A DNA stretch of 64,000 nt from IMG/VR virus record IMGVR_UViG_3300043788_000169, positions 68,502 to 132,501 of that record; one strand, given 5' to 3'. Shown in pieces: positions 46,417-63,692 of this stretch (the stretch's first letter is position 1; the number at the start of each line of letters is the position of its first letter). The DNA is from a virus. The notes under the pieces were generated by a model. The model was given only the letters and a program-made list of their open reading frames with translations, did not search any database and was not told where the DNA came from. The position numbers were made by a program, and so were the translations under genes.

Positions 46417-48138
46417 GTGATCGCTGACGTCAGAACGTGGGATCCGCGTGTCCGCATGCAGGCTGCCTGGATTGCCCACGAGGCGCCCGACATCACCGAC
46501 TACGAGGTTCCAGCCTGCTGGAACGATAGAGTCTGCCTCCAGCACCGGCAGTCTTCCGGCAGCTGCCCGCTGTGCGGCTCGGGCCGCAGCCCGCACCTGT
46601 GCCCGCTGTGCGACTACTGCGGGGTCATGCTCCGGCGCCATCAGCGGACCGGTTCCATGTGGCTGTTCCTGGCGGGAGATGCCCTGCTGGCGGACACGGT
46701 GGGCCTGGGCAAGACGCCCTCGGTGACCGGGATGCTCGCCTTCTGCAGGGAATCCGGCGAGCTGAGCCTGCAGAACCGGGCGGTGGTCGTCGCCAAGTCC
46801 AGTGCCGTTGGCCAGTGGGCCACGCAGCTGACCCGCATGATCCCGTCGCTGCGGGTGATCGCCACGACCGGCAGCATGTCCAAGCAGCAGCGGATCAACG
46901 CCTACCTGACCCCGTGGGAGGTAGCGGTCATCTCCGAGCGCACGCTGGCCTCGGCCCGCGGGGCGAAGCGGAGCAAGGAAGGCGACCTCACGTATTTGTC
47001 GCACTTCCCGGTCGGGATCGTCGTTGCCGACGACACCGATGCCATGCGCACTCGTACGACCCGGACGTCGCACGCGGTCCGCGAGCTGGCTGGCCGGGCG
47101 TCCCGGGTGGTCATCGTGCACGGTACGCCGCTCCAGAAGAAGATGGATGAGCTTTACAACTTCCTGGAGCCGATCGGTGGCCCGGCCCGCCTCGGCAGCC
47201 AGCGGCAGTTCCACTACCGGTACGTCACCACCTCGACCGACGTCTACTACACCCGCGACAGCACCGGGCAGGTGGTCGAGTGCGAGCGCACCACCGACAC
47301 CGGGGTCAAGAACGAGCAGGAGCTGCAGCAGCTGATCGCCCCGCTGATCCTGCGCCGCCGGCCCGAGCACGTGGACGACATGACCCTGCCCGCGATTCAG
47401 CCGAACGTCGTCTGGCTCGACCCCTCCCCGGCGCAGGCCCGGCGCTATGCCGAGCTGCAGGACGGTGTGCTGCGCCTGATACGTGAGCAGGGCGAGACCA
47501 TCAGCCGTCCGCAGGCGGCCGCGCTGTGGACCCACGGCTGGCAGATCTGCTCCGGGCTGGCCACCCTGGACGAGGGCCCGGGCGACGACAGCATCAAGCT
47601 CGACTGGATCATGGAGCACGTCGAGCCGCCGGGCGCCATGAGCCTGGGCGGGTTCGCTGGCGATAAGGCCGTGGTGTTCGTCAACTTCAAGCCGAACGTG
47701 GAGGCCCTGTCCCGGCGGCTGGACGTCGCGGGCATCCGGCATGTAGTCATGTGGGGGAACGAGACCGGGCAGGCCGAGCGTGACCGCCGGCTGACCGCGT
47801 TCCGCCAGGACCCTGGCTGCCGGATGCTGATCGGGACGACGACTATCGAGATGAGCCTGAACCTCCAGGCCGCACGTCATCTCATTGCCGTCGATACCAT
47901 CCCGAATCCCGCGCGCATGACGCAGCTGGCGGGGCGCGTGAGGCGCGCGGGATCTCCGTTCAGCACGGTGTACTTTCATCAGCTTCTGCTTCGTGGGACG
48001 CAGGAGGAGGGTATTCTCAACCAGCTGTACTCCGAGCAGGAGACCGCGGACACCGTCTGGGGAGAGCAGGGAGACCTGTTCCAGGACAGGACCCCGCTGG
48101 AGATGCTGCGGATGATCGCAGCCCGGAGGGCGGCATAG
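46417..48138 (+). CDS. SNF2-like SF2 helicase
   Basis: LADTVGLGKT; VVADDTD; HGTPLQ; LILRR; SLNLQAA; Q..GRVRRAG. Confidence 0.85.
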   Translation: MIADVRTWDPRVRMQAAWIAHEAPDITDYEVPACWNDRVCLQHRQSSGSCPLCGSGRSPHLCPLCDYCGVMLRRHQRTGSMWLFLAGDALLADTVGLGKTPSVTGMLAFCRESGELSLQNRAVVVAKSSAVGQWATQLTRMIPSLRVIATTGSMSKQQRINAYLTPWEVAVISERTLASARGAKRSKEGDLTYLSHFPVGIVVADDTDAMRTRTTRTSHAVRELAGRASRVVIVHGTPLQKKMDELYNFLEPIGGPARLGSQRQFHYRYVTTSTDVYYTRDSTGQVVECERTTDTGVKNEQELQQLIAPLILRRRPEHVDDMTLPAIQPNVVWLDPSPAQARRYAELQDGVLRLIREQGETISRPQAAALWTHGWQICSGLATLDEGPGDDSIKLDWIMEHVEPPGAMSLGGFAGDKAVVFVNFKPNVEALSRRLDVAGIRHVVMWGNETGQAERDRRLTAFRQDPGCRMLIGTTTIEMSLNLQAARHLIAVDTIPNPARMTQLAGRVRRAGSPFSTVYFHQLLLRGTQEEGILNQLYSEQETADTVWGEQGDLFQDRTPLEMLRMIAARRAA

Positions 48139-48140
48139 CC

Positions 48141-48335
48141 ATGGCCGTAACCGATCGGTTCTGGCGAGTGACCTTGAAACTGCCCCACGGAGCCGTGATG
48201 ATGTTTTCCGTAACGGGCGCTACGCGCCATGACGCTGCTGCGGCCACGTTTTACCACCTGCTGCACCACGGGCCGCCCCCTGGCAAGATCAGTGACATCA
48301 AGCTGCTGCAGCAGGCTCACCACGTTAAGTCGTGA
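48141..48335 (+). CDS. Small hypothetical protein
   Basis: GGAGG RBS; coupled to the sigma gene. Confidence 0.55.
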   Translation: MAVTDRFWRVTLKLPHGAVMMFSVTGATRHDAAAATFYHLLHHGPPPGKISDIKLLQQAHHVKS

Positions 48336-49015
48336 CGCCGGAGATCGAGCGTCTTGTTGCGGAGCTGATGCCCCAGGCCAAGGCCGAGGCTTGGAAGCTG
48401 TTCAACTCGGCGCCCCAGCAGCTGAGCCTGGACGAGCTGGTCTCGTGGGCTTATCTCGGGCTGGCCAAGGCTGGGGACCGGTGGCAGGGGTACTGCGAGA
48501 AGAACAGCTACAGCCCGGACGCCACGCAGTATTTCGCTGCGTATGCGCTGCGCTACATCCGCGGGACGATGGTCGACTCCCTGCGCTCCTCCGACCACGT
48601 CACCCGTTCGATGCGCCGCCGGGCCAAGGATCTGCGCGAGGCCGGCCAGGATCTTGGCGTCGGTGAGGGCGAGCTGGCGGAGAAGACCGGCCTGACCGTC
48701 CAGCAGATCCGGGCCACGGTCGCCGCGGTGGCCCGGCGGCCGGTGTCCATGGATGCCGAGCCCGTCGACATCGCGGATGACGACGACGTGGAGGGCCAGG
48801 CGGTGGTCAATACCGTGCTGGCCGCCGCGGTGCAGGTGCTGCTGGCCCAGCCCCCTGACGTCCAGGCTGTGATCGCGCTGCGCTACCACCAGGGGATGGA
48901 TCTTCGGGCGGTGGCTGCGCAGCTGGGGCGCCCGGAGGCCGAAGTAGGTGACCTGCACACCGCTGGCATCCTCGCCGTGCACGAGGCCATGCTCTCAGCG
49001 GTTGATGAATCCTAG
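48332..49015 (+). CDS. FliA/WhiG-family sigma factor
   Basis: ELVSWAYLGL; FAAYA..YIRG.MVD.LR..D.V.RS.R; region 4 VIALRY.QGM.L..VA..LG. Confidence 0.85.
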   Translation: MTPEIERLVAELMPQAKAEAWKLFNSAPQQLSLDELVSWAYLGLAKAGDRWQGYCEKNSYSPDATQYFAAYALRYIRGTMVDSLRSSDHVTRSMRRRAKDLREAGQDLGVGEGELAEKTGLTVQQIRATVAAVARRPVSMDAEPVDIADDDDVEGQAVVNTVLAAAVQVLLAQPPDVQAVIALRYHQGMDLRAVAAQLGRPEAEVGDLHTAGILAVHEAMLSAVDES

Positions 49016-50671: not shown

Positions 50672-51276
50672 AGACAGGCAGCCTCTGCACGGGCTACAGC
50701 GGCCTGGAGCTGGGTGCCGCCGCCCACTTCGACATCGACCTGCAGTGGGTGGCTGACAATGACCCTGACGCCGCGGTGGCGCTGGCTGAGCACCATCCCG
50801 GTGTGCCGAACCTCGGTGACATCAAAGAGGTCGACTGGTCCCGCGTCACCCCGGTCGAGCTGCTGCTCCTGGGCTTCCCGTGCCAGGACGTCTCGTCGGC
50901 CGGCAGGCGGGCGGGGCTCCAGCCCGGTAACAGGAGCGGGATCTGGTCGCACTGTGCTTATGCGATAGGAGTGCTACGACCCCAGCTGGTGATCATAGAG
51001 AACGTAAAGGGGCTGCTCAGTGCTCGTGCCCACAGCGACGTGGAATCCTGTTCGTGGTGTCTGGGAAACACCACAGAGCGCAGCTTGCGGGCACTTGGTG
51101 CCGTACTTGGCGACCTTGCCACGCTCGGGTATGATGCGGAATGGACGACTCTACCCGCCTCTGACGCGGGATGCTGCCATCCCCGCGACCGGGTCTTCAT
51201 CATCGCTTGGCTTGCGGCTGTTCAAGACGCCGACAGCCCAGCTGGGGATCAACGGCGGGAGCCAGCACCCGTCTAA
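50668..51276 (+). CDS. C5 cytosine DNA methyltransferase, catalytic part (motifs I-VIII)
   Basis: SLCTGYSG, GDI, GFPCQDVS.AG, IENVKG, HPRDRVFI. Confidence 0.9.
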   Translation: MKTGSLCTGYSGLELGAAAHFDIDLQWVADNDPDAAVALAEHHPGVPNLGDIKEVDWSRVTPVELLLLGFPCQDVSSAGRRAGLQPGNRSGIWSHCAYAIGVLRPQLVIIENVKGLLSARAHSDVESCSWCLGNTTERSLRALGAVLGDLATLGYDAEWTTLPASDAGCCHPRDRVFIIAWLAAVQDADSPAGDQRREPAPV

Positions 51277-51805
51277 GCGCAAGGCAGGCGGCCACGGCCC
51301 GACCTTGGCTGACGAGGCTGAGAACGAGCTGTCCTTCTTGCCCACCCCCAACGCTACGGACTGCAAGGGCAGTGGCGGCCTGGGGGACATGGATCTTCCG
51401 GAGGCTGTCTCCCTGCTGCCGACGCCCGCGGCCCGCGACTACAAGTCTGGCGAGTCGAATCTGCTGGAGCGCAACGCGCGGCCGCTCAATGAGGTGGCTG
51501 TCAACCAGCTGCGGCCTGTCGGCGGGATCGTGGACTGGGGCCGGTACGCCCGTGCGGTGCTGTGGTGGGAGCAGGTGTTCGGCCGGATGGCGCCCTGCCC
51601 GCTGGAGCCCGGCCGGGGTAGCAACCTCGTGCTTGCTCCCGTGTTCGTGGAGTGGATGATGGGTCTCCCCCTTGGCTGGGTGACGGATCTCCCCCTCTCC
51701 CGTAACGCCCAGCTCAAGCTGCTCGGCAATGGCGTGGTCCCCCAGCAGGTAGTCCTGGGACTGTCCATCCTGTTGCCGCGGGTACCAGTGCTGTGGAAGC
51801 AATAG
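51020..51805 (+). CDS. C5 methyltransferase second part (TRD, motifs IX-X) in an overlapping frame
   Basis: LPTP repeats; EWMMGLP.GW; QLKLLGNGVVPQQ. Confidence 0.8.
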   Translation: MLVPTATWNPVRGVWETPQSAACGHLVPYLATLPRSGMMRNGRLYPPLTRDAAIPATGSSSSLGLRLFKTPTAQLGINGGSQHPSKRKAGGHGPTLADEAENELSFLPTPNATDCKGSGGLGDMDLPEAVSLLPTPAARDYKSGESNLLERNARPLNEVAVNQLRPVGGIVDWGRYARAVLWWEQVFGRMAPCPLEPGRGSNLVLAPVFVEWMMGLPLGWVTDLPLSRNAQLKLLGNGVVPQQVVLGLSILLPRVPVLWKQ

Positions 51806-53274
51806 ACCATGGAAAGCGGGTCCTGGGCACGATACTGGGCCACCAGGACCGGCAGGCTCTCGACTACGCCCTGCGGTGGCTCCAGCCCGAGCACTTCACC
51901 GACGTCGTCCAGGCCAACATCTGGGTGATGTGCCAGCGGTACCTGGATCAGGCTGGCCACGTGCTTACCCGCAGCGCGCTGGAAGACATCATGAGCCACC
52001 AGCCGCCCGGCACCGCCCTCATGTATACGGAGATGTTCGACAGCCTCGTGACGTGGAAGGCCGACGCTACTGCGGCCGGGGTCGCTGCGTTCCAGTGGTC
52101 GGTGCAGCAGCTGCGCGATCTGGCCGCCGAGCGGATGACGGGTGAGGCGCTGACCAGGGCGATGGAGATCATGCGCCGCGGGTATACCGAGGGCCGCCAG
52201 TCCTGGTCCGGCCACGACGACGCCCGCCGCTGGCTGATCACCCGGTTCTCCGAAATCGAGCGCCAGCTGCGTTACGCCGAGGTTCCCGAGGGCGACATGC
52301 GCACCGAGGCCACGGCCATGCTGAGCGAGTACGGAAACCGCAAGGCCCTGGCCGCCCGGGGGGAGACCGGTCTCATCGCCACCGGGATCCCGGAGCTGGA
52401 CAGGCTGCTCGGTGGTGGCCTGGGCCGCGGCGAGCTGGACTTCGTCGCTGCCTACACCAGCGTCGGCAAGACCAGCATGTGTGTCCACCTCGCCTGGCAC
52501 GCCGCAGTGATGCAGGGCAAGAATGTCGTCTACTTCACCAGCGAGACGCTGCGCGAGCAGATCCGGGTCAAGGTGCTGTCCCGTCACTCCCGGCTGGAGA
52601 AATTCGGGCTGAAGTTCGGCCTCAACAGCAAGGACATCAAGTCCGGCCAGCTCACCCCGGAGGCGGAGCGGGCTCTCTCCATGGTGGCTGACGACTTCTC
52701 CCGGATCGCCGGTCGGCTGTTCATCGCCCAGATCCCCAAGGGCGCCACGGTCAGCGTCATCGACGCGAGCCTGGAGCGCGTCACCCGGGACTGGGAGGCC
52801 GATCTGGTCATCCTGGACTCGGTGAGCCTGCTGCGGCCCGAGGAGGCCCGCCGGTCCGGCTGGGAGGAGCACGCCCGCACGATCAAGGCGTCCAAGGAAC
52901 TGGCAGCCACCTACCACGAGGGCCGCGGGGTGCCGCTGGTCAGCCCGTGGCAGATCTCCAGGGAAGGCCAGCGCGCAGCGCGCGAGCGCGGCTACTACCT
53001 GATTGGTGACCTCGCTGAGGCCCATGAAGCCGGAACCAGCTCGGACGTGGCTTTGTCGCTCATGAGCCCGGCGGACTTCGGCGGCGGCCGCAACGTCACG
53101 CTGGAGATGAGCGTGCTCAAGAACCGTGACGGAGAGTCTCTCCAGGGAGCGGCCGCCACGCTCAAGCTGCGGACCGACTACGCCACGAGTTACTTCATGG
53201 CCCAGGGCGGGGGCGCCGACAGCGTCACCCAGCTGATGCAGTACCAGGCCAACGGGTCCAATGTCTTTGGGTGA
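51793..53274 (+). CDS. dnaB: DnaB-like replicative helicase
   Basis: TGIPELDRLLGGGL..GEL; AAYTSVGKT; YFTSE; VILD; QISR; KNRDG. Confidence 0.9.
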   Translation: MEAIDHGKRVLGTILGHQDRQALDYALRWLQPEHFTDVVQANIWVMCQRYLDQAGHVLTRSALEDIMSHQPPGTALMYTEMFDSLVTWKADATAAGVAAFQWSVQQLRDLAAERMTGEALTRAMEIMRRGYTEGRQSWSGHDDARRWLITRFSEIERQLRYAEVPEGDMRTEATAMLSEYGNRKALAARGETGLIATGIPELDRLLGGGLGRGELDFVAAYTSVGKTSMCVHLAWHAAVMQGKNVVYFTSETLREQIRVKVLSRHSRLEKFGLKFGLNSKDIKSGQLTPEAERALSMVADDFSRIAGRLFIAQIPKGATVSVIDASLERVTRDWEADLVILDSVSLLRPEEARRSGWEEHARTIKASKELAATYHEGRGVPLVSPWQISREGQRAARERGYYLIGDLAEAHEAGTSSDVALSLMSPADFGGGRNVTLEMSVLKNRDGESLQGAAATLKLRTDYATSYFMAQGGGADSVTQLMQYQANGSNVFG

Positions 53275-57269: not shown

Positions 57270-57412
57270 TGGCAGAACAGGCGGTTGTCGTTCAGGGTCT
57301 GGATGTCCTGGGCATCGTTGCAAGTATCGGGCTGGTGGTACTGATCTTTGGTCTTGTGTGGGTCATCAATCTCCTGGGTGACATCCGCAGAGAGTTGCGG
57401 AGGCATCGGTGA
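57266..57412 (+). CDS. Small membrane protein
   Basis: ATGA coupling; single TM. Confidence 0.55.
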   Translation: MMAEQAVVVQGLDVLGIVASIGLVVLIFGLVWVINLLGDIRRELRRHR

Positions 57413-58197
57413 TCGTCGGGCACGACCGCGTCATGACCGAGCTGCTGTGCTGCTCCGAGCCGGCCATGCTCCTGCAGGGCCCCTCCAGCGTCGGCAAGTT
57501 CACCACCGCCCGCCACGTTGCCTACTCCTGGGAAGTGCAGCCGGCGGATCTGTTCTGCATCGAGAAGCTTTCAGCAAACGATGCCAAGCAGGTAGCTGAC
57601 CAGCTGGCTTACATCCCGCCGTTCGGTGATCTCAAGGTGTTCATCATCCGGACGGACGGGGCCACCCCGATTGCCCAGAACATCCTGCTGAAGACCCTGG
57701 AAGAGCCCACGCCGGGCGTCCGGTTCTTCCTGGTGGCTTCTGAGCCCGTGCTGCCTACGGTCGCCTCGCGGTGCCGCCTGTTCCAGTTCGGGCTGCTCAG
57801 CGACGCCGAGGTCGAGCGGGTGCTGAGCCTGACCGGGATGAATGCCGAATCCGCCGCTTTCCATGCCCCGCTCGGCGCGGGCCGGGTGCGGGCGGCCAGG
57901 GAAGGGGTCAGTCCCCATGCCCGCGGGCAGGTCGTCTCGGCGCTGCGCGCGCTGGCGGCCCGGGACGCATCCATGCTGCCCGCCGCCCTGCGGGAGTGGG
58001 ACGACGCCGCGCATAGCCTGCTCAAGCAGTGGGCTGCTGAGGCCGCTTCCGGCCGGTGGCGCGTGTTCACCGAGGAGACCGTCCCTGGTCTCGGCCCGGC
58101 CGCGGCGCGGAGGCTGCTTGGTCGGCTGGGCAGCTACTCCCAGAGTGCTCCCAAGCTGGCGGCTTACGCCGCGCTCGACTCTTTGTGCTGGAGCTGA
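57409..58197 (+). CDS. holB: DNA Pol III clamp-loader delta'-like subunit
   Basis: GPSSVGK; AQN.LLKTLEEP; LPTVASRC. Confidence 0.85.
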   Translation: MIVGHDRVMTELLCCSEPAMLLQGPSSVGKFTTARHVAYSWEVQPADLFCIEKLSANDAKQVADQLAYIPPFGDLKVFIIRTDGATPIAQNILLKTLEEPTPGVRFFLVASEPVLPTVASRCRLFQFGLLSDAEVERVLSLTGMNAESAAFHAPLGAGRVRAAREGVSPHARGQVVSALRALAARDASMLPAALREWDDAAHSLLKQWAAEAASGRWRVFTEETVPGLGPAAARRLLGRLGSYSQSAPKLAAYAALDSLCWS

Positions 58198-58259
58198 TCT
58201 CCTGCGCGATACCTCTCCTGTCGTGCAGCATTGCACCGACCACACAGGAGGGAATCACG

Positions 58260-58817
58260 ATGCCTGACGAGATTGGCGCTGTCGACCTCAGCGGACTGGC
58301 TGACAGCATGGATGCCGCGCGGCGGCAGCGGAGCGCGCCGCCTCACCCGCAGCGCCCCCCGACCAGGACCACCGCCCGGGTGGCTTCGGCGGTGACCAAC
58401 CCAGATGGATCGGGCGTCGCCCAGATCATGGTCACGGACGACTCTCCGCCGTGGATGACTCCCGAGCTGGAGCAGAGCCACAAAGACCTGCTCGGCCTGA
58501 GTGAGCAGGTGAAGCAGCGCGGTACGGAGGTGCTGCGCTACGGGGGGCACATCCCCATGGACAGCATGTTCTCCCTGCAGCTGTTCACTCTGGTCGACAT
58601 GCTCTTCCCGCGGACCACCGAGCGCGGCCAGCGGCAGTTTCTGGAGTATCAGACCCGGGTGCAGAAGCGGCTGCTGGAGATCCTCGACTCCGTTGAGGAC
58701 CAGATCCACCAGGCAGCCCTGGCCGCCGGGAGCCATGTGCCCCCGGAGGCCCTGGCCCGGATGGCGGAGCGTGCCGGGATACCAACCCCGGCGGCCGAGC
58801 AGAGACGAGGTGGGTGA
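58260..58817 (+). CDS. Hypothetical protein
   Basis: AGGAGG RBS before MPDEIG. Confidence 0.65.
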   Translation: MPDEIGAVDLSGLADSMDAARRQRSAPPHPQRPPTRTTARVASAVTNPDGSGVAQIMVTDDSPPWMTPELEQSHKDLLGLSEQVKQRGTEVLRYGGHIPMDSMFSLQLFTLVDMLFPRTTERGQRQFLEYQTRVQKRLLEILDSVEDQIHQAALAAGSHVPPEALARMAERAGIPTPAAEQRRGG

Positions 58818-59786
58818 TTGGCGACCTACGGGCAATGGGCTAAGAAACGGGAGCTGGGCAGGATCAGCTGGGTCTGCGGCAATGAGCCGGTGCTGATCGA
58901 GGAGATCGTCGCTACGGCGCTGGCCCAGGCTACGGCCAGCTTCGTCCTTGATGCAGGTCAGTGCCGCGAGGCTGACATCTGGTCTGCGGCTGCCTCTCCG
59001 CCGTCTGACCCGGATGAGCGCCTGCTGGTTCTCGTCCGCAGCGCTCAGCGGATGAAGCGGTGGGATCAGCTTGGCCAGCTGCTCGCCGCCCGGGATCTTG
59101 GTCAGGTCCGGGTGCTGTTTGTCTCTTCCGAGGACCGCCTGGCAAAGCGCCGCGGGGAGGACGAGGAGAAGGCGGTCCTCGCCCCGCATCTGGCCATGCT
59201 GCGCGACAGCCGGTCCGGGATGGTGGTGGAGTGCCGGGTGCCGGAGGACTGGCGGGATATGCCCGAGTGGCTGCTTGAGTGGGCCAGCACAGTGCTCGGC
59301 GGCGCCGGGCGCGTGGCCGGGGAGATGCTGCTCATGCTGTCCGGCAGCGTCACCGAGGCCGCCGCGGTGGCCGCCAAGCTCACCGGGGCCGGAATCGCCC
59401 CGAGCCGGGAGATGATCTCCGCTCTGGCCGACCCGGCCGGGTCCTACACCGAGGCTGTGATAGCTGGCCGCACGGCGGAGGCCCTGGCAGCGGCCGCAGG
59501 CATGACCCCGGAGGATACCGGGGCTGCGATTGGGCTGCTCGCCTCCCGGCTCGACCTGCTGCTTGCCCTCCACGAGGCCGCCATGAGGCACTGGGACGCC
59601 CGGGAGACAGCGGTGAGGGCGAACGTGCCCAGCTTCCTGCAGCTGCGCTACAGGGCCGCTGCGGCCTCGTACAGCTATGAGCGTGCCCGCGCGCTCCGGC
59701 TGGTTCTGGCGGACGCCGACGCGGCGTGGCGCTCGGGAGTACAGGATGGGGTGCCAGAGTTTGTCGCGGTGCTGTGGGCAGCCTAG
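58818..59786 (+). CDS. holA: DNA Pol III clamp-loader delta-like subunit
   Basis: W.CG.E..LIEE N-terminus; RLLVLVR.A; C-terminal L..LADAD...RSG; about 320 aa next to holB. Confidence 0.65.
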   Translation: MATYGQWAKKRELGRISWVCGNEPVLIEEIVATALAQATASFVLDAGQCREADIWSAAASPPSDPDERLLVLVRSAQRMKRWDQLGQLLAARDLGQVRVLFVSSEDRLAKRRGEDEEKAVLAPHLAMLRDSRSGMVVECRVPEDWRDMPEWLLEWASTVLGGAGRVAGEMLLMLSGSVTEAAAVAAKLTGAGIAPSREMISALADPAGSYTEAVIAGRTAEALAAAAGMTPEDTGAAIGLLASRLDLLLALHEAAMRHWDARETAVRANVPSFLQLRYRAAAASYSYERARALRLVLADADAAWRSGVQDGVPEFVAVLWAA

Positions 59787-59800
59787 GAGGTAGCAGGGAC

Positions 59801-60235
59801 ATGACTACCAAGCCACGCCAGCGTCCTGGCGATCAGCCGCTGCCGGTCCCGAACGACCGTCCCTCGATTCATGATCTGGTGCTGGAAGACCTTGAGCAGA
59901 TGCATCTGGACGGACCGGCTTCCCTGATCCTGCTCTCCCGCAGGCAGCTTGGGCTGGACCGCTATGACTCGCTGCTTCAGGCGTTCAACAACCGGGACGC
60001 CTTCCGGGATCTGGTGGAGGAGCTGGCCGACGCCAGTGTCTACGCCCGTCAGCTGATCGAGGAGCATAAAGAGGCCGGAACACCGGCTGGACCTCAGCTC
60101 ATCCGGCTGCAGATTGTCGCTACCTCCCTGCTGTTCCTGCTCAACGATGTTCTTACGCTCTCGCTCCCCACGCCAAAGCCGCGCTATGGTGATGGTGAGC
60201 AGGCAGGAGAGCCTGCGGACGGAGCTGGTTCATGA
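59801..60235 (+). CDS. MazG-like nucleotide pyrophosphohydrolase-fold protein
   Basis: R..LG..RY...L...N.RD...D..EELADA.VY. Confidence 0.55.
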   Translation: MTTKPRQRPGDQPLPVPNDRPSIHDLVLEDLEQMHLDGPASLILLSRRQLGLDRYDSLLQAFNNRDAFRDLVEELADASVYARQLIEEHKEAGTPAGPQLIRLQIVATSLLFLLNDVLTLSLPTPKPRYGDGEQAGEPADGAGS

Positions 60236-60624
60236 CAGGTGCAGCCCCGCCCAGCTGGCGGGTTTACCAGAAGGAATGGACCGTCGTCTACACCAGTGAT
60301 GAAACTGATGAGGAAGGCGCGGCGGAAGTCAGCCGGTTCCTTGCTGAGCACTACGATGGGCGCCTGCGTGACGAGGACATCCGGCTGAGCATCTCGGTCC
60401 CTGTCCTCGTGAATGGCCAGCGTCCCGAGAAGTACGAGCCTGTGCACTCGCTCGGGTCGGTACGGCTCTGGAACCGGCGCGGGGAGTGGGGTCTTGAGAA
60501 GGACGCCCGCAATCACGCCGAGAGGATCTGGGCCGCGGAAGGTGTAGTCCCTACTGTGGTAGGGGCAGAAACACCACAGGAGCAGGAGCTGCTCGATTAC
60601 GGGAAGAGGATGCTGCCCGCATGA
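60232..60624 (+). CDS. Hypothetical protein
   Basis: ATGA coupling. Confidence 0.6.
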   Translation: MTGAAPPSWRVYQKEWTVVYTSDETDEEGAAEVSRFLAEHYDGRLRDEDIRLSISVPVLVNGQRPEKYEPVHSLGSVRLWNRRGEWGLEKDARNHAERIWAAEGVVPTVVGAETPQEQELLDYGKRMLPA

Positions 60625-60797
60625 GCCCAGTTGCTGTCGAGGCACTCGAAACCAGGCTGGCGCAGATAGAGCGCGAGCGCGACTTCGCGAACACGGTGGC
60701 TGCGGAGGCCGTCCGCATGCTCAGCGATGATCAGCTCCACGCACTGCGCCGGCGGCTGGCGGGGTGCGACGAGCCTGCGCTCGCCCGCACGGGCTGA
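60621..60797 (+). CDS. Small coiled-coil protein (58 aa, absent from ORF track)
   Basis: ATGA and TGATG coupling on both sides. Confidence 0.55.
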   Translation: MSPVAVEALETRLAQIERERDFANTVAAEAVRMLSDDQLHALRRRLAGCDEPALARTG

Positions 60798-61138
60798 TGC
60801 GTGTCTACCGTAATCGCTCGGGGCGTGTCGTCGGCACGTCCCAGGGCTGCTTGTCCTACTTCATCGGATGGTCGTTCGGGGTCATCCTCATGCTTGGGGT
60901 AATCGCCCTCATCTTCCTGTGGCCGCTAGCGGCCTTCCAGGGACCTGACGACTGGCAGCCCCGGCTCTTCTGGTTCTTCACCCAGTGGTTCCTTGTTTCC
61001 CTGATCGTCCGCCGGGTCTCCCGCGCCGCCAGGCGCCGCCGGCTCGCCGCGCAGGCCGACCGGGCCGTCGCTGAAAAGTACGGGTCCGGCCCGAGGGACT
61101 GGTCGCCCATGAATGACGACGGCCGGCGGGCGATCTGA
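60797..61138 (+). CDS. Membrane protein
   Basis: TGATG coupling; two TM. Confidence 0.6.
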   Translation: MRVYRNRSGRVVGTSQGCLSYFIGWSFGVILMLGVIALIFLWPLAAFQGPDDWQPRLFWFFTQWFLVSLIVRRVSRAARRRRLAAQADRAVAEKYGSGPRDWSPMNDDGRRAI

Positions 61139-63692
61139 GCGTCACACGAGTAATACAGGCGTGAGCCAATCTACGACTGCGTTCGCGCCGGACTACGGTC
61201 TTGTTTCCAGCGACGATGAGTTCGAGCAGCTCTGCCGGAAGCTGGTAGAGGACGGCCTGCCCTTCGGCTTCGACATCGAGACCAGCTACGACGGCGAGCC
61301 CCGCGAGGAAGCCCAGCTGCACCCGGAGACGAACTTCGTCTGCGGGCTGAGCTTCACCAACGCCCTGACCTGGGCCCGGTACGCACCGCTGCGCCACGAC
61401 TTCGGGTTCAACCTGGACAACAAGCGCGCTGCTGTCGCTTTCTGGTCGGCACTGCAGACCAGGCTGGGGATTCCGCATAACGCCAAGTTCGAGCGGCGCT
61501 GCCTGTCCCGCTGGTTCATGGAGTGGCTGGCCGACCATCCGCTGCTCGGCGCCGCGGTGCGTGCAGTCTGCGGGTACTTCGACGTCTTGTCCGACACGAT
61601 GCTGGAATCCTACGTCGAGGCAGCCAACCAGAGGCACGGTCTCAAGGACATCACCCTGGTCAATTTCGGCCACAAGATGGCTGAGATATTCGACCTGTTC
61701 CCGCAGCGCCTGACCAAGGGCGGCAAGGCGCGCAAGCTCACGCAGAAGGAACAGAAGAGCATCCGGTTCAGCGAGCTGGACCAGACCGACCCCAAGGTCA
61801 TCGCGTACGCCAGCGAGGACTCGCTGTGGGCGCTGGCTCACCACTACCGCCGCTACCCGGTGGTCAAAGACAACTGGATCTACCAGCTGGAGATGGCGAT
61901 CCTGCCGATCGCCTGCAAGATGGAGGACCGGGGAATCCAGTACGACTGGAACTTCCTGCGCGAGGGAGCAGTGCGTGCCCGGGCGTTCCAGGACAAGCTG
62001 GCGCGGGTGATCAATGCCGAGCTGACCAAGCTCGTGCGCGGGATGGACCCGGAAGCCGACGAGGTCAGCATCAACCTCGCCTCCCCGGCACAGATCTCCG
62101 CGGTGCTCTACGACCAGCTCGGGTTCACGACCCGGCGCAAGACCAACAGCGGGAAGAACTCGACCGACGAGGTAGCGCTGACCGGGCTGGCCAAGTCCTA
62201 CCCGGTGGTCCAGCGGATCCTGGACTGGAAGTCGCTGAACAAGCTCGCCGGGACCTACCTGGAGGTCTACGAGGAGCGGTTCAGCTACGCACCCGATGGC
62301 AGGGCCCACCCCAGCTGGCTCCAGCATGGCGTGCCGGCCGGCCGGTTCGCGGCCGCCGGGCCGCCGGTCCAGCAGAGCCCCAAGCACTACCACTACAAGA
62401 TCACCCGCGAGGAGTGGCAGGAAGCCACCGGCACCGCGGCGGAGCAGGACATTACCTTTGACTTCAACTTCCGCGACGCAATCGTCGCCCCGCAGGGCTA
62501 CTACCTGATCGGGTTCGACTACAAGAACATGGAGCTGCGGGTGCTGGCCGGCGAGGCCCAGGAGCCCGCGCTGCTGGAGGCGTTCGGCCGGGGCGAGGAC
62601 GTCCACATGCTGACCGCCACGCTCATGCTCGGGCGCCCGGCGGCCCAGATCGCCAAGGACGACCGGGACAAATTCGGCAAGATCATGAACTTCGCCCTGT
62701 CCTATCAGATGGGTGTCGACGGCCTGTCCCAGCGTCTCGGCGTCAGCAAGGATGAGGCTCAGGCTTTGTTCGATCAGTATTTTTCTTCCTACACCCGGAT
62801 CAAGGCGTACATGGACCAGACCGTGGCCAGCGCCAAGGCGCTCGGCTACATCACCACCCGGTTCGGCCGGAAGGTGAAGATCTGGGAGTTCCTGAGCAAC
62901 GAGAGGTGGATCTACGCCGCCGGGGAGCGCCTGGCTGGGAACGCGCCAATTCAGGGCGCCGGGACCGGGGACTACCCGAAGATCGCCATGGTGCGTGCCG
63001 AGGCAGCTTTGCAGCAGGCTGGGCTGGCGGACTCGGCCGAGCTGGTCATGAACATGCACGACGCCCTGTACTGGTACGTGAAGGACGACGTGGCTCCGGC
63101 TGACGTCATCCGCGTCCTGCAGCCCGCGGTTGTCTTCCCGGTCGAGGGCTGGCCGCCTATCGAGGTCGAGTGGTGCGCTGGGTACCGGTGGGGATCAATG
63201 AAGGATCTGGAGGTGCTGCCAGATGGCTCTGTACGGATCGCCGGAGCAGAGGAGCCAGCAGTCGGAGTACGTGAACCGGCTGGAGTACCTGAGCAAGATG
63301 AACCAGCCTCTGAGCCAGTCGGAGCGCGAGTGGAGGCTTCAGAGCCGGCGGTGGCCCGCGTTGCTCCTGCTGTGCTCTCTGGGCCTGACCGCGACCCTGA
63401 CACTGGCCTACCTGCTCTGGGCACTACGCCACGTACTGTGATCGTCACGCTCGACCGTCAGCCCGAGGTCTTGGCCTGGACGGGCTTCTGCGGCTGGCTG
63501 AAGAGCGATGAGATGACTGGGAACAACCGGGTGATCGTGCGCGTGCCTGACGGGGAGACCGAGCTGGATATCCGGTGCCGGCTCGGCCCTGCATGGCAGC
63601 CCAATGTGTCCCTGCTCTTCGGCGGGGCGGTGGTCAACTACGCTCCTGATAGCGTCGATACAGGAGCCCTGGCCGCCGGACTGCGCCTTTAG
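61113..63692 (+). CDS. polA: Family A DNA polymerase with 3'-5' exonuclease and C-terminal extension (start may be GTG 61161)
   Basis: Exo FDIET, HNAKFE, YASEDS; motif A DYKNMELR; motif B KIMNFALSYQM; motif C MHDAL. Confidence 0.92.
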   Translation: MTTAGGRSERHTSNTGVSQSTTAFAPDYGLVSSDDEFEQLCRKLVEDGLPFGFDIETSYDGEPREEAQLHPETNFVCGLSFTNALTWARYAPLRHDFGFNLDNKRAAVAFWSALQTRLGIPHNAKFERRCLSRWFMEWLADHPLLGAAVRAVCGYFDVLSDTMLESYVEAANQRHGLKDITLVNFGHKMAEIFDLFPQRLTKGGKARKLTQKEQKSIRFSELDQTDPKVIAYASEDSLWALAHHYRRYPVVKDNWIYQLEMAILPIACKMEDRGIQYDWNFLREGAVRARAFQDKLARVINAELTKLVRGMDPEADEVSINLASPAQISAVLYDQLGFTTRRKTNSGKNSTDEVALTGLAKSYPVVQRILDWKSLNKLAGTYLEVYEERFSYAPDGRAHPSWLQHGVPAGRFAAAGPPVQQSPKHYHYKITREEWQEATGTAAEQDITFDFNFRDAIVAPQGYYLIGFDYKNMELRVLAGEAQEPALLEAFGRGEDVHMLTATLMLGRPAAQIAKDDRDKFGKIMNFALSYQMGVDGLSQRLGVSKDEAQALFDQYFSSYTRIKAYMDQTVASAKALGYITTRFGRKVKIWEFLSNERWIYAAGERLAGNAPIQGAGTGDYPKIAMVRAEAALQQAGLADSAELVMNMHDALYWYVKDDVAPADVIRVLQPAVVFPVEGWPPIEVEWCAGYRWGSMKDLEVLPDGSVRIAGAEEPAVGVREPAGVPEQDEPASEPVGARVEASEPAVARVAPAVLSGPDRDPDTGLPALGTTPRTVIVTLDRQPEVLAWTGFCGWLKSDEMTGNNRVIVRVPDGETELDIRCRLGPAWQPNVSLLFGGAVVNYAPDSVDTGALAAGLRL

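Follow-up and report, generated by a model that had tools for sequence, protein, structure and literature searches.

In bacterial replisomes the contact between the tau and alpha subunits of DNA polymerase III (Pol III) couples the polymerases to the clamp loader and, via the loader, to the helicase. To our knowledge, family A polymerases such as those of T7 and T5 are thought to work without a tether of this kind. Here we describe the family A DNA polymerase (PolA) of a virus, IMG/VR record IMGVR_UViG_3300043788_000169, in which the polymerase domain is followed by a linker and by a C-terminal tail resembling, in its predicted fold and in profile comparisons, the tau-binding C-terminal domain (CTD) of Pol III alpha. 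The gene lies in a window of 64,000 nucleotides (nt), the whole stretch of DNA that was analysed, which is the second half of the record (G000:C1:68502-132501); unless stated otherwise, coordinates are positions in this window.

Phages that combine PolA with the beta and gamma proteins of Pol III are already known. Microcystis phage Ma-LMM01 and Ralstonia phage RSL1 are listed with PolA, PolIII beta and PolIII gamma, and the clamp was suggested there to serve PolA (Kazlauskas & Venclovas 2011, PMC3201878). Within Caudoviricetes, in-situ swaps of the polymerase have been described, among them the replacement of PolC by a PolA (Yutin et al. 2024, PMC11348598); as judged by a term search, clamps, tau and C-terminal domains are not treated there. 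For E. coli tau it has been reported that the last 18 residues, which are unstructured, are required to bind alpha (Jergic et al. 2007, PMC1888804). Set against these systems, what appears to be new in the virus described here is the alpha-like tail of PolA and a C-terminal extension of DnaX that tracks this tail. Full-text literature searches, covering papers without their supplements, yielded no description of a phage Pol I with a domain for tau binding.

Architecture of the polymerase and its C-terminal tail

The polymerase gene and its parts are given below; lengths are in amino acids (aa).

61113-63692 (stop included), + strand: family A DNA polymerase, 859 aa; PF00476, E 3.7e-75; phrog_17, E 3.6e-78.
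~61245-61862, + strand: N-terminal 3'-5' exonuclease-type region, ~residues 45-250, upstream of the polymerase domain.
61995-63191, + strand: polymerase domain, residues 295-693 (PF00476 envelope, 253.7 bits against a cut-off of 34.3).
63225-63431, + strand: Pro/Glu/Ala-rich linker, residues ~705-773, varying in length and sequence among homologues.
63432-63641, + strand: fold like that of the C-terminal (tau-binding) domain of Pol III alpha, residues 774-843 (model, Foldseek and hhalign).
63642-63689, + strand: conserved C-terminal peptide, residues 844-859, consensus SVDxxaLxxGLxL (27-tail alignment).

An alternative GTG start, 16 codons downstream, is possible for PolA, as in the homologue P0001. 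In the exonuclease-type region D54, E56, Y232 and D236 are invariant in the PolA alignment A1 and presumably represent the exonuclease motifs. By-eye reading of alignments A1 and A3 shows two stretches of the polymerase domain, DYxxxELR with D469 and NFAxxY with K523, and a putative third motif, H649-D650-A651 (nt 63057-63065), an HDA that is invariant in both PolA alignments. These may correspond to motifs A, B and C, of which the third is HDE in the Klenow polymerase.

The conserved block of the tail opens at R774 (nt 63432) and runs for ~70 residues. The 14 linker residues that were included in the structural model (760-773) have a mean predicted local distance difference test (pLDDT) score near 52. 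The C-terminal peptide is kept in most of the 27 aligned tails (alignment A2) and appears in the model as a low-confidence helix (850-856); among the open reading frames (ORFs) of the genome, PolA alone ends in this motif. A reading of the DNA made from its letters and ORFs only (the sequence-only reading) had proposed a PolA followed by a Pro/Glu/Ala linker and a C-terminal domain, an architecture that the PF00476 match, the alignments and the boundary at R774 bear out.

With a word-indexed search three full-length relatives of PolA were found, and an exhaustive phmmer search with residues 760-859 returned 53 proteins at E<=1e-3. Ten of the phmmer matches were analysed with Pfam. All eight long single-stretch matches were family A polymerases in which the tail block stands at the C-terminal end or close to it (a LAGLIDADG, intein-type domain is present in one); P0007, of 238 aa, matched no Pfam family; and P0009, the sole multi-stretch match tested, is an Ig-repeat protein and was taken as noise. 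The closest protein from an isolate is gp69 of Microbacterium phage Magritte (33.7% identity over PolA residues 50-851). On the evidence of the phmmer matches the tail is no chance feature of PolA. In the PolAs P0019 and P0056 (1209 and 1273 aa) the polymerase match is split, and one of the two carries a LAGLIDADG domain.

For the surveys below, 49 related loci were retrieved with PolA alignment A3; locus counts are given out of 50. Gene content was examined in 33 related records (32 virus records and phage Magritte), 22 of which are at least 90% complete. The viruses form a clade with genomes of ~120-150 kb, and their hosts are probably Actinomycetota.

Similarity of the tail to the C-terminal domain of Pol III alpha

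The tail was modelled with AlphaFold2 from the 27-sequence alignment (mean pLDDT 80.9, with 91-93 in the core blocks). The predicted topology is beta-alpha-beta-beta-alpha-beta, followed by a C-terminal helix of low confidence. When the model was compared with 350,542 PDB chains by Foldseek, ranks 1-6 were all occupied by Pol III alpha of Thermus aquaticus (2hpi, 3e0d_A and 4iqj chains A-D), with probabilities of 0.63-0.98, E-values of 0.04-0.33, 78-82 aligned columns, 21-23% identity and TMq values of 0.45-0.52; E. coli 5fku_A was found at rank 14. In the viral library BFVD nothing matched the tail at E<=0.001, and the best probability, 0.44, was for an unannotated phage DNA polymerase.

A positive control was modelled from the C-terminal 95 aa of a genuine DnaE (from record G019 of the clade), with 40 DnaE C-termini as the alignment. 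The topology of the control model was the same as that of the tail. The control retrieved the same entries, with E-values of 7.7e-5 for 2hpi, 1.8e-4 for 3e0d_A and 2.7e-4 to 4.2e-3 for the 4iqj chains, and the portion of these entries that it matched equals the match of the tail in length. Against E. coli alpha the control reached E-values of only 0.11 (5fkv_A) and 0.26 (5fku_A), showing that scores as weak as those of the tail can be obtained even between true homologues of so small a domain.

Profile comparisons were made with hhalign. A full-length DnaE profile was built from 78 sequences (76 genomic DnaEs, E. coli DnaE and that of G019), and the best local alignment of the tail to it corresponds to E. 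coli alpha 1082-1155 over 66 collinear columns (score 25.9-26.5, P 0.008, best among 1160 alpha positions). The real score of 26.5 was reached by none of 150 column shuffles of the tail (mean 14.9, standard deviation 2.5, maximum 25.0), and the reversed profile scored 18.2. Alignment of a tail-only profile (A7, 14 sequences) with a CTD-only profile (A8, 40 sequences) gave an E-value of 2.7e-4 over 75 collinear columns. The tail is ~15-23% identical to DnaE CTDs. The aligned stretch 1082-1155 includes residues L1097/L1098, Y1119 and L1128 of E. coli alpha, mutation of which is reported to abolish tau binding (Butterworth et al. 2025, PMC11869525).

A number of results speak against a relationship with alpha. 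No Foldseek match of the tail in the PDB was found at E<=0.001, and Foldseek gives no aligned region of alpha, the region being deduced from the control and from hhalign. The hhalign probabilities were low (4.9% with full DnaE and 41.7% with the CTD only), a narrow DnaE profile of nine sequences gave no alignment to the tail, and the tail profile searched against PDB sequences matched in its PolA part only, with no DnaE. Pfam gave nothing for the tail at E<=10. The family PF20914 (DNA_pol_IIIA_C) was detected neither in the virus's own genome (E<=10) nor in the 33 records (E<=1); PF20914 is narrow, passing its cut-off in only one of 14 control genomes and missing the genuine DnaE of G019 as well.

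Overall, we consider it likely, with good confidence, that the C-terminal tau-binding domain of alpha has in the tail a divergent relative or, failing that, a close structural equivalent. The resemblance to the DnaE CTD that the sequence-only reading had noticed by eye is thus supported by Foldseek, where the top six matches are Pol III alpha, by the DnaE CTD control and by the profile alignment with its shuffles.

Clamp, clamp loader and helicase genes

The remaining replication genes are as follows; the first two lie outside the window and are given in coordinates of the record.

G000:C1:2212-3468 (also L002:1408-2664): beta clamp, 418 aa; PF00712, E 1.4e-7, and PF02768, E 1.1e-5.
G000:C1:8983-10197: DnaX-like ATPase, at most 404 aa; PF13177, E 1e-31, and PF22608 (DNAX_ATPase_lid), E 1.3e-8.
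57409-58197, + strand: delta'-like clamp-loader subunit, 262 aa; PF13177, E 4.7e-14, and phrog_5846 (clamp loader), E 1.6e-15.
58818-59786, + strand: delta (HolA) homologue, 322 aa; assigned with a 33-homologue profile against the PDB.
51793-53274, + strand: DnaB-like replicative helicase, 493 aa; PF03796 (DnaB_C), E 7e-20, residues 195-449.

The PF00712 match of the clamp is above the cut-off and the PF02768 match just under it. The clamp has 16 further homologues of 374-460 aa, and PF00712, PF02767 and PF02768 are found among the homologues. An N-terminal extension of ~30 residues precedes the first clamp domain and is kept in the homologues of 412-433 aa (97-100% query coverage). In DnaX the P-loop is present, by pattern, in 30 of 30 clade sequences.

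The delta'-like protein matches PF13177 with 53.1 bits (cut-off 27), and its PDB matches are to gamma/tau (E 4e-8) and delta' (E 2.3e-5). By score alone it is equally near gamma and delta'; inspection of the translation by eye shows a degenerate P-loop (GK then F) and an SRC motif. In 39 of the 50 loci there is a homologue in the vicinity of PolA. The holA-like protein on its own gave a weak match to PF21694 (E 0.023), no match to the N-terminal Pfam model PF06144 and no match in the PDB. A profile of 33 clade delta homologues (A5) matched 3zh9_B ('DELTA') with an E-value of 6.3e-16 over positions 5-313 of 323, and E. coli delta (1jqj_C) with 2.6e-5; PF21694 was detected in 11 of these 33 sequences. 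By profile similarity the protein is a delta homologue, and a homologue on the same strand, ending ahead of the PolA match, is present in 37 of the 50 loci.

Some smaller ORFs lie nearby. Those at 58260-58817, 59801-60235 and 60764-61138 were considered as conserved partners and rejected, each occurring in only one or two of the 50 loci; the ORF at 60232-60624, also between delta' and PolA, is found in 11.

Among the 33 related records, clamp-loader ATPases of family PF13177, as a rule one DnaX-like and one delta'-like protein, are encoded in all 33, including the 22 that are at least 90% complete, and the PF00712 beta clamp in 29, again including all 22. PF07733 DnaE was detected in a single record, G019, which belongs to the more complete ones (1/22), and no DnaE was found in the virus's own genome. 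The tau C-terminal domain PF20964 is absent from all 33 records (0/22 of those at least 90% complete) and from the own genome, from which PF12170 is absent too. These counts indicate that the hybrid composition of the replication genes is a stable feature of the whole clade.

The sequence-only reading had postulated a hybrid replisome of PolA with clamp-loader subunits, and this composition was recovered clade-wide in the 33 records. Its holB-like gene is confirmed by PF13177 and the PDB clamp-loader matches, and its holA-like gene by the match of profile A5 to solved delta subunits. The DnaB that it named is present, though outside the interval 57409-63692 to which it had been assigned. The window does lack DnaX and clamp genes, as stated there, and both genes were located when the rest of the same genome was searched.

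Record G019 carries, in addition to a tailed PolA, a full DnaE of 1216 aa (L055:1704-5354) that is 72% identical (best segment) to Pseudonocardia DnaE. By its sequence this DnaE looks like a recent capture from a host, and it hints at Pseudonocardiales hosts for that phage. In record G014 the open frame of DnaX has 723 aa, and its PF13177 match is broken into two distant pieces, and in G013 the DnaX match lies in a frame of 1477 aa. Several replication genes of the clade look as if they were interrupted by inteins.

Co-occurrence of the tail with a C-terminal peptide of DnaX

The distribution of the tail was determined with a hidden Markov model (HMM) of the tail on six-frame translations. In 35 of the 50 loci PolA was found to have the tail at its C-terminal end or close to it. 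Three PolAs of the clade (L022, L024 and L025; frames of 675-679 aa) end directly after the polymerase domain, and in L034 and L036 a divergent tail is visible by eye only. PolA of L041 is cut by the contig end, and L046-L054 hold nine distant PolAs with 20-27% identity. A search with the tail profile A7 in the three records that lack the tail and the two in which it is divergent gave nothing at E<=1, a result of limited sensitivity, as the two divergent tails were missed too. The tail-less sample thus consists of three records from two lineages, to which three further scans added none.

The C-terminus of DnaX was compared in 30 sequences, from 29 records and the own genome. Apart from the 723 aa of G014 and the 1477 aa of G013, the clade DnaX proteins are gamma-length, in open frames of 357-441 aa. 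A C-terminal extension is present in all 26 records with an HMM-positive tail and in G024, which has a divergent tail. In the 25 sequences in which the anchor, the last conserved helix of domain III, was found, it is followed by 48-67 residues. The extension consists of a linker rich in Pro and Ala that leads to a C-terminal motif, [KRQ]-[LMI]-[ST]-[LI]-x-[DEQ]-[MLI]; DnaX ends in ...PQTLTLAQMGNGHRISA in the own genome and in ...RKLSLAEMQRG in Magritte. The strict motif is found in 21 of the 27, and looser variants were recognized by eye in the other six. In the tail-less records G015 and G014 DnaX stops 29 and 40 residues, respectively, after the anchor helix, with neither linker nor motif. 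The co-occurrence of the DnaX peptide and the PolA tail is suggestive of a coupling between the two. A by-eye comparison of the DnaX peptide of the phage with the C-terminus of E. coli tau was set aside, the peptide being too short for a claim of homology.

Proposed arrangement and alternative explanations

From the gene content and the similarity in fold and profile we infer a tether, a partner for it and an origin. The explanation that we favour overall, and hold to be somewhat better than even, is that PolA stands in the place of alpha, that DnaX is a minimal tau tethering the tail, and that the arrangement arose by a polymerase swap or a domain capture. PolA would be a replicative, proofreading-type family A polymerase, connected by its flexible linker to a copy of an alpha-type docking domain. 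Pol III alpha is missing from a clade in which the beta clamp, a gamma-length DnaX, delta, delta' and DnaB are all encoded; its place would be taken by PolA, and the phage DnaX3-delta-delta' complex would load the phage beta clamp. DnaX itself would consist of a three-domain ATPase core, a short Pro/Ala-rich linker and the C-terminal peptide, and binding of this peptide to the tail of PolA would tether the polymerase to the clamp loader. Since tau requires its unstructured last 18 residues to bind alpha, a DnaX of gamma length that ends in a linker and a short peptide could act as a minimal tau. The origin probably lies in a swap from PolC to PolA, or in the capture of a domain, with the docking module kept.

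Docking of the PolA tail on the clamp loader is plausible, and the co-occurrence of the DnaX peptide with the tail speaks for it. The fuller proposal of a chimeric Pol III holoenzyme, with a family A polymerase replacing alpha and with an alpha-derived domain plus a DnaX peptide of ~10 residues serving as the minimal tau arm, is put forward tentatively, as a possibility that we rate below even.

Other observations count against such a tether. The canonical partner of an alpha CTD, domain V of tau, is missing (PF12170 in the own genome; PF20964 in the own genome and the 33 records), and three PolAs of the clade have no tail at all. In G016, the third of the tail-less records, DnaX still has a long linker, together with a degenerate form of the motif. 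As G014 and G015 are sister lineages, the comparison comprises few independent events, one concordant and one ambiguous. Moreover, the DnaX peptide presumably resembles the first four positions of the beta-clamp-binding motif, and it may bind the clamp instead.

A different partner for the tail would be the host tau: an alpha-CTD-like tail could bind the C-terminal domain of that protein, while the gamma-like DnaX of the phage just loads the phage clamp. The resemblance of the tail to a tau-binding domain would be accounted for, and so would the lack of a tau C-terminal domain in the own genome and in every one of the 33 records; actinobacterial hosts are likely to carry full-length tau. We nevertheless regard this explanation as unlikely. 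Since the phage has its own clamp loader, clamp and DnaB, the genes argue for a self-contained machine; the DnaX peptide tracks the tail; and with ~15-23% identity to DnaE CTDs the tail is no recent copy tuned to host tau.

We judge it just as unlikely that the tail, mainly through the GLxL end of its C-terminal peptide, tethers PolA to the phage beta clamp, with the alpha-like domain acting as a spacer or providing extra contacts. C-terminal clamp-binding peptides are known from gp43 of T4 and RB69 and from E. coli Pol II and Pol IV, and a polymerase that uses a clamp needs a site for binding it. The PolA peptide is C-terminal, hydrophobic and conserved, in our estimation it partly resembles QLxLxL-type motifs, and a beta clamp is encoded in all 22 records that are at least 90% complete. 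The fit of the peptide to the consensus is poor, however; among the ORFs of the genome it is found at the end of PolA alone, and the divergent tails of L034, L036 and L045 are without it. The phages of the three tail-less PolAs keep the clamp loader, and a clamp was found in two of the three. The tau-binding-like appearance of the folded domain would be left unexplained. Complex prediction of the tail (A2) with two beta clamps (A6), run without controls, yielded ipSAE values of 0.22 and 0.00 (mark 0.32), which speak neither for nor against such a tether.

Least likely of all is a generic ferredoxin-like module (DNA-binding, regulatory or for oligomerisation) with a convergent likeness to alpha: this type of fold is very common, all Foldseek E-values were above 0.01 and every HMM-level test was negative, but the six best of 350,542 PDB chains were all Pol III alpha with no other ferredoxin-like fold among them, the DnaE CTD control returned the same list, the best profile alignment fell on the alpha CTD, collinear throughout and above 150 of 150 shuffles, and the replicative polymerase that carries the domain at its C-terminal end is encoded together with accessory proteins of Pol III in one genome.

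If PolA is tethered to the clamp loader through DnaX as proposed, the tau-alpha tether would be a portable module of two pieces that can be moved between unrelated polymerase families, and domain shuffling could rebuild the architecture of a replisome around a non-homologous polymerase. The phages would offer a very small and tractable system for the coupling of polymerase and clamp loader, and 'polymerase swapping' in phage genomes would be given a concrete content. Magritte is a cultivable relative in which experiments on a minimal tau-alpha-like interaction could be done.

The record and the genes upstream of the replication genes

The virus record is linear, has a length of 132,501 bp and is estimated to be 83% complete; the G+C content across the window is 64-70%. 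By comparison with a relative of 141.7 kb (L006 / G001, ~91% identical) the record lacks ~8.1 kb that would join its end to its start, and from this alignment it is a permuted, incomplete copy of a genome of ~140 kb. In the relative the missing part (L006:12886-21025) encodes RecA, an SMC/SbcC-type ATPase, an Mre11-like phosphoesterase and a GH25 hydrolase, together with unassigned ORFs of 127, 210, 483, 176 and 392 aa; neither DnaE nor tau is found in this region of L006.

No tRNA genes were detected in the 64-kb window with ARAGORN; in the related phage Magritte at least 17 such genes form an array that begins or lies within a few kb downstream of PolA. The replication genes are preceded by an SNF2-family helicase (46417-48138; PF00176, E 4e-24, and PF00271, E 4e-15) and a weak sigma-70-like protein (48332-49015) in which regions 2 and 4 both score under the Pfam cut-offs. 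The ORF at 50578-51276 matches a C-5 cytosine DNA methylase (PF00145, E 3.9e-26) over profile positions 1-163 of 324 only, and is overlapped in another frame by an ORF of 261 aa (51020-51805) with no Pfam match. The methylase gene may be split, frameshifted or truncated.

Comparison with known systems

The closest isolated phage is Magritte (OR553905, 133 kb), of which gp69, annotated 'DNA polymerase I', has the same architecture of PolA, linker and tail. Magritte also has homologues of delta and delta' upstream (annotated 'ASCE ATPase'), a beta clamp and DnaX; its record holds no annotation for the tail or for clamp-loader roles. In Ma-LMM01 and RSL1 the gamma homologue is the only loader subunit given in the published description (PMC3201878), whereas delta and delta' are encoded here as well. 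The phage described here further adds, relative to that description, the alpha-like domain of PolA and the C-terminal peptide of DnaX.

As in the swaps described for Caudoviricetes (PMC11348598), the polymerase family would have been exchanged with the remaining replication module left in place; a docking domain that was retained or captured in the process would be a new detail for such swaps.

With the CTD of Pol III alpha (E. coli ~1080-1160; 2HPI, 3E0D, 4IQJ; 5FKU/5FKV) the tail has in common the topology, the size and the position at the extreme C-terminus. It differs in being attached to a family A and not a family C polymerase, in being preceded by a disordered linker with no OB domain, and in having an additional conserved C-terminal peptide of 16 residues and no match to PF20914. 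The phage DnaX, in turn, is gamma-length and lacks the folded domains IV and V of E. coli tau, through which tau contacts DnaB and alpha. What it shares with the tau-alpha system, as far as that is set out in the cited accounts (PMC1888804; PMC11869525), is the order of a loader ATPase, a flexible linker and a short C-terminal peptide, and, as predicted here, a C-terminal domain of the polymerase that receives the peptide.

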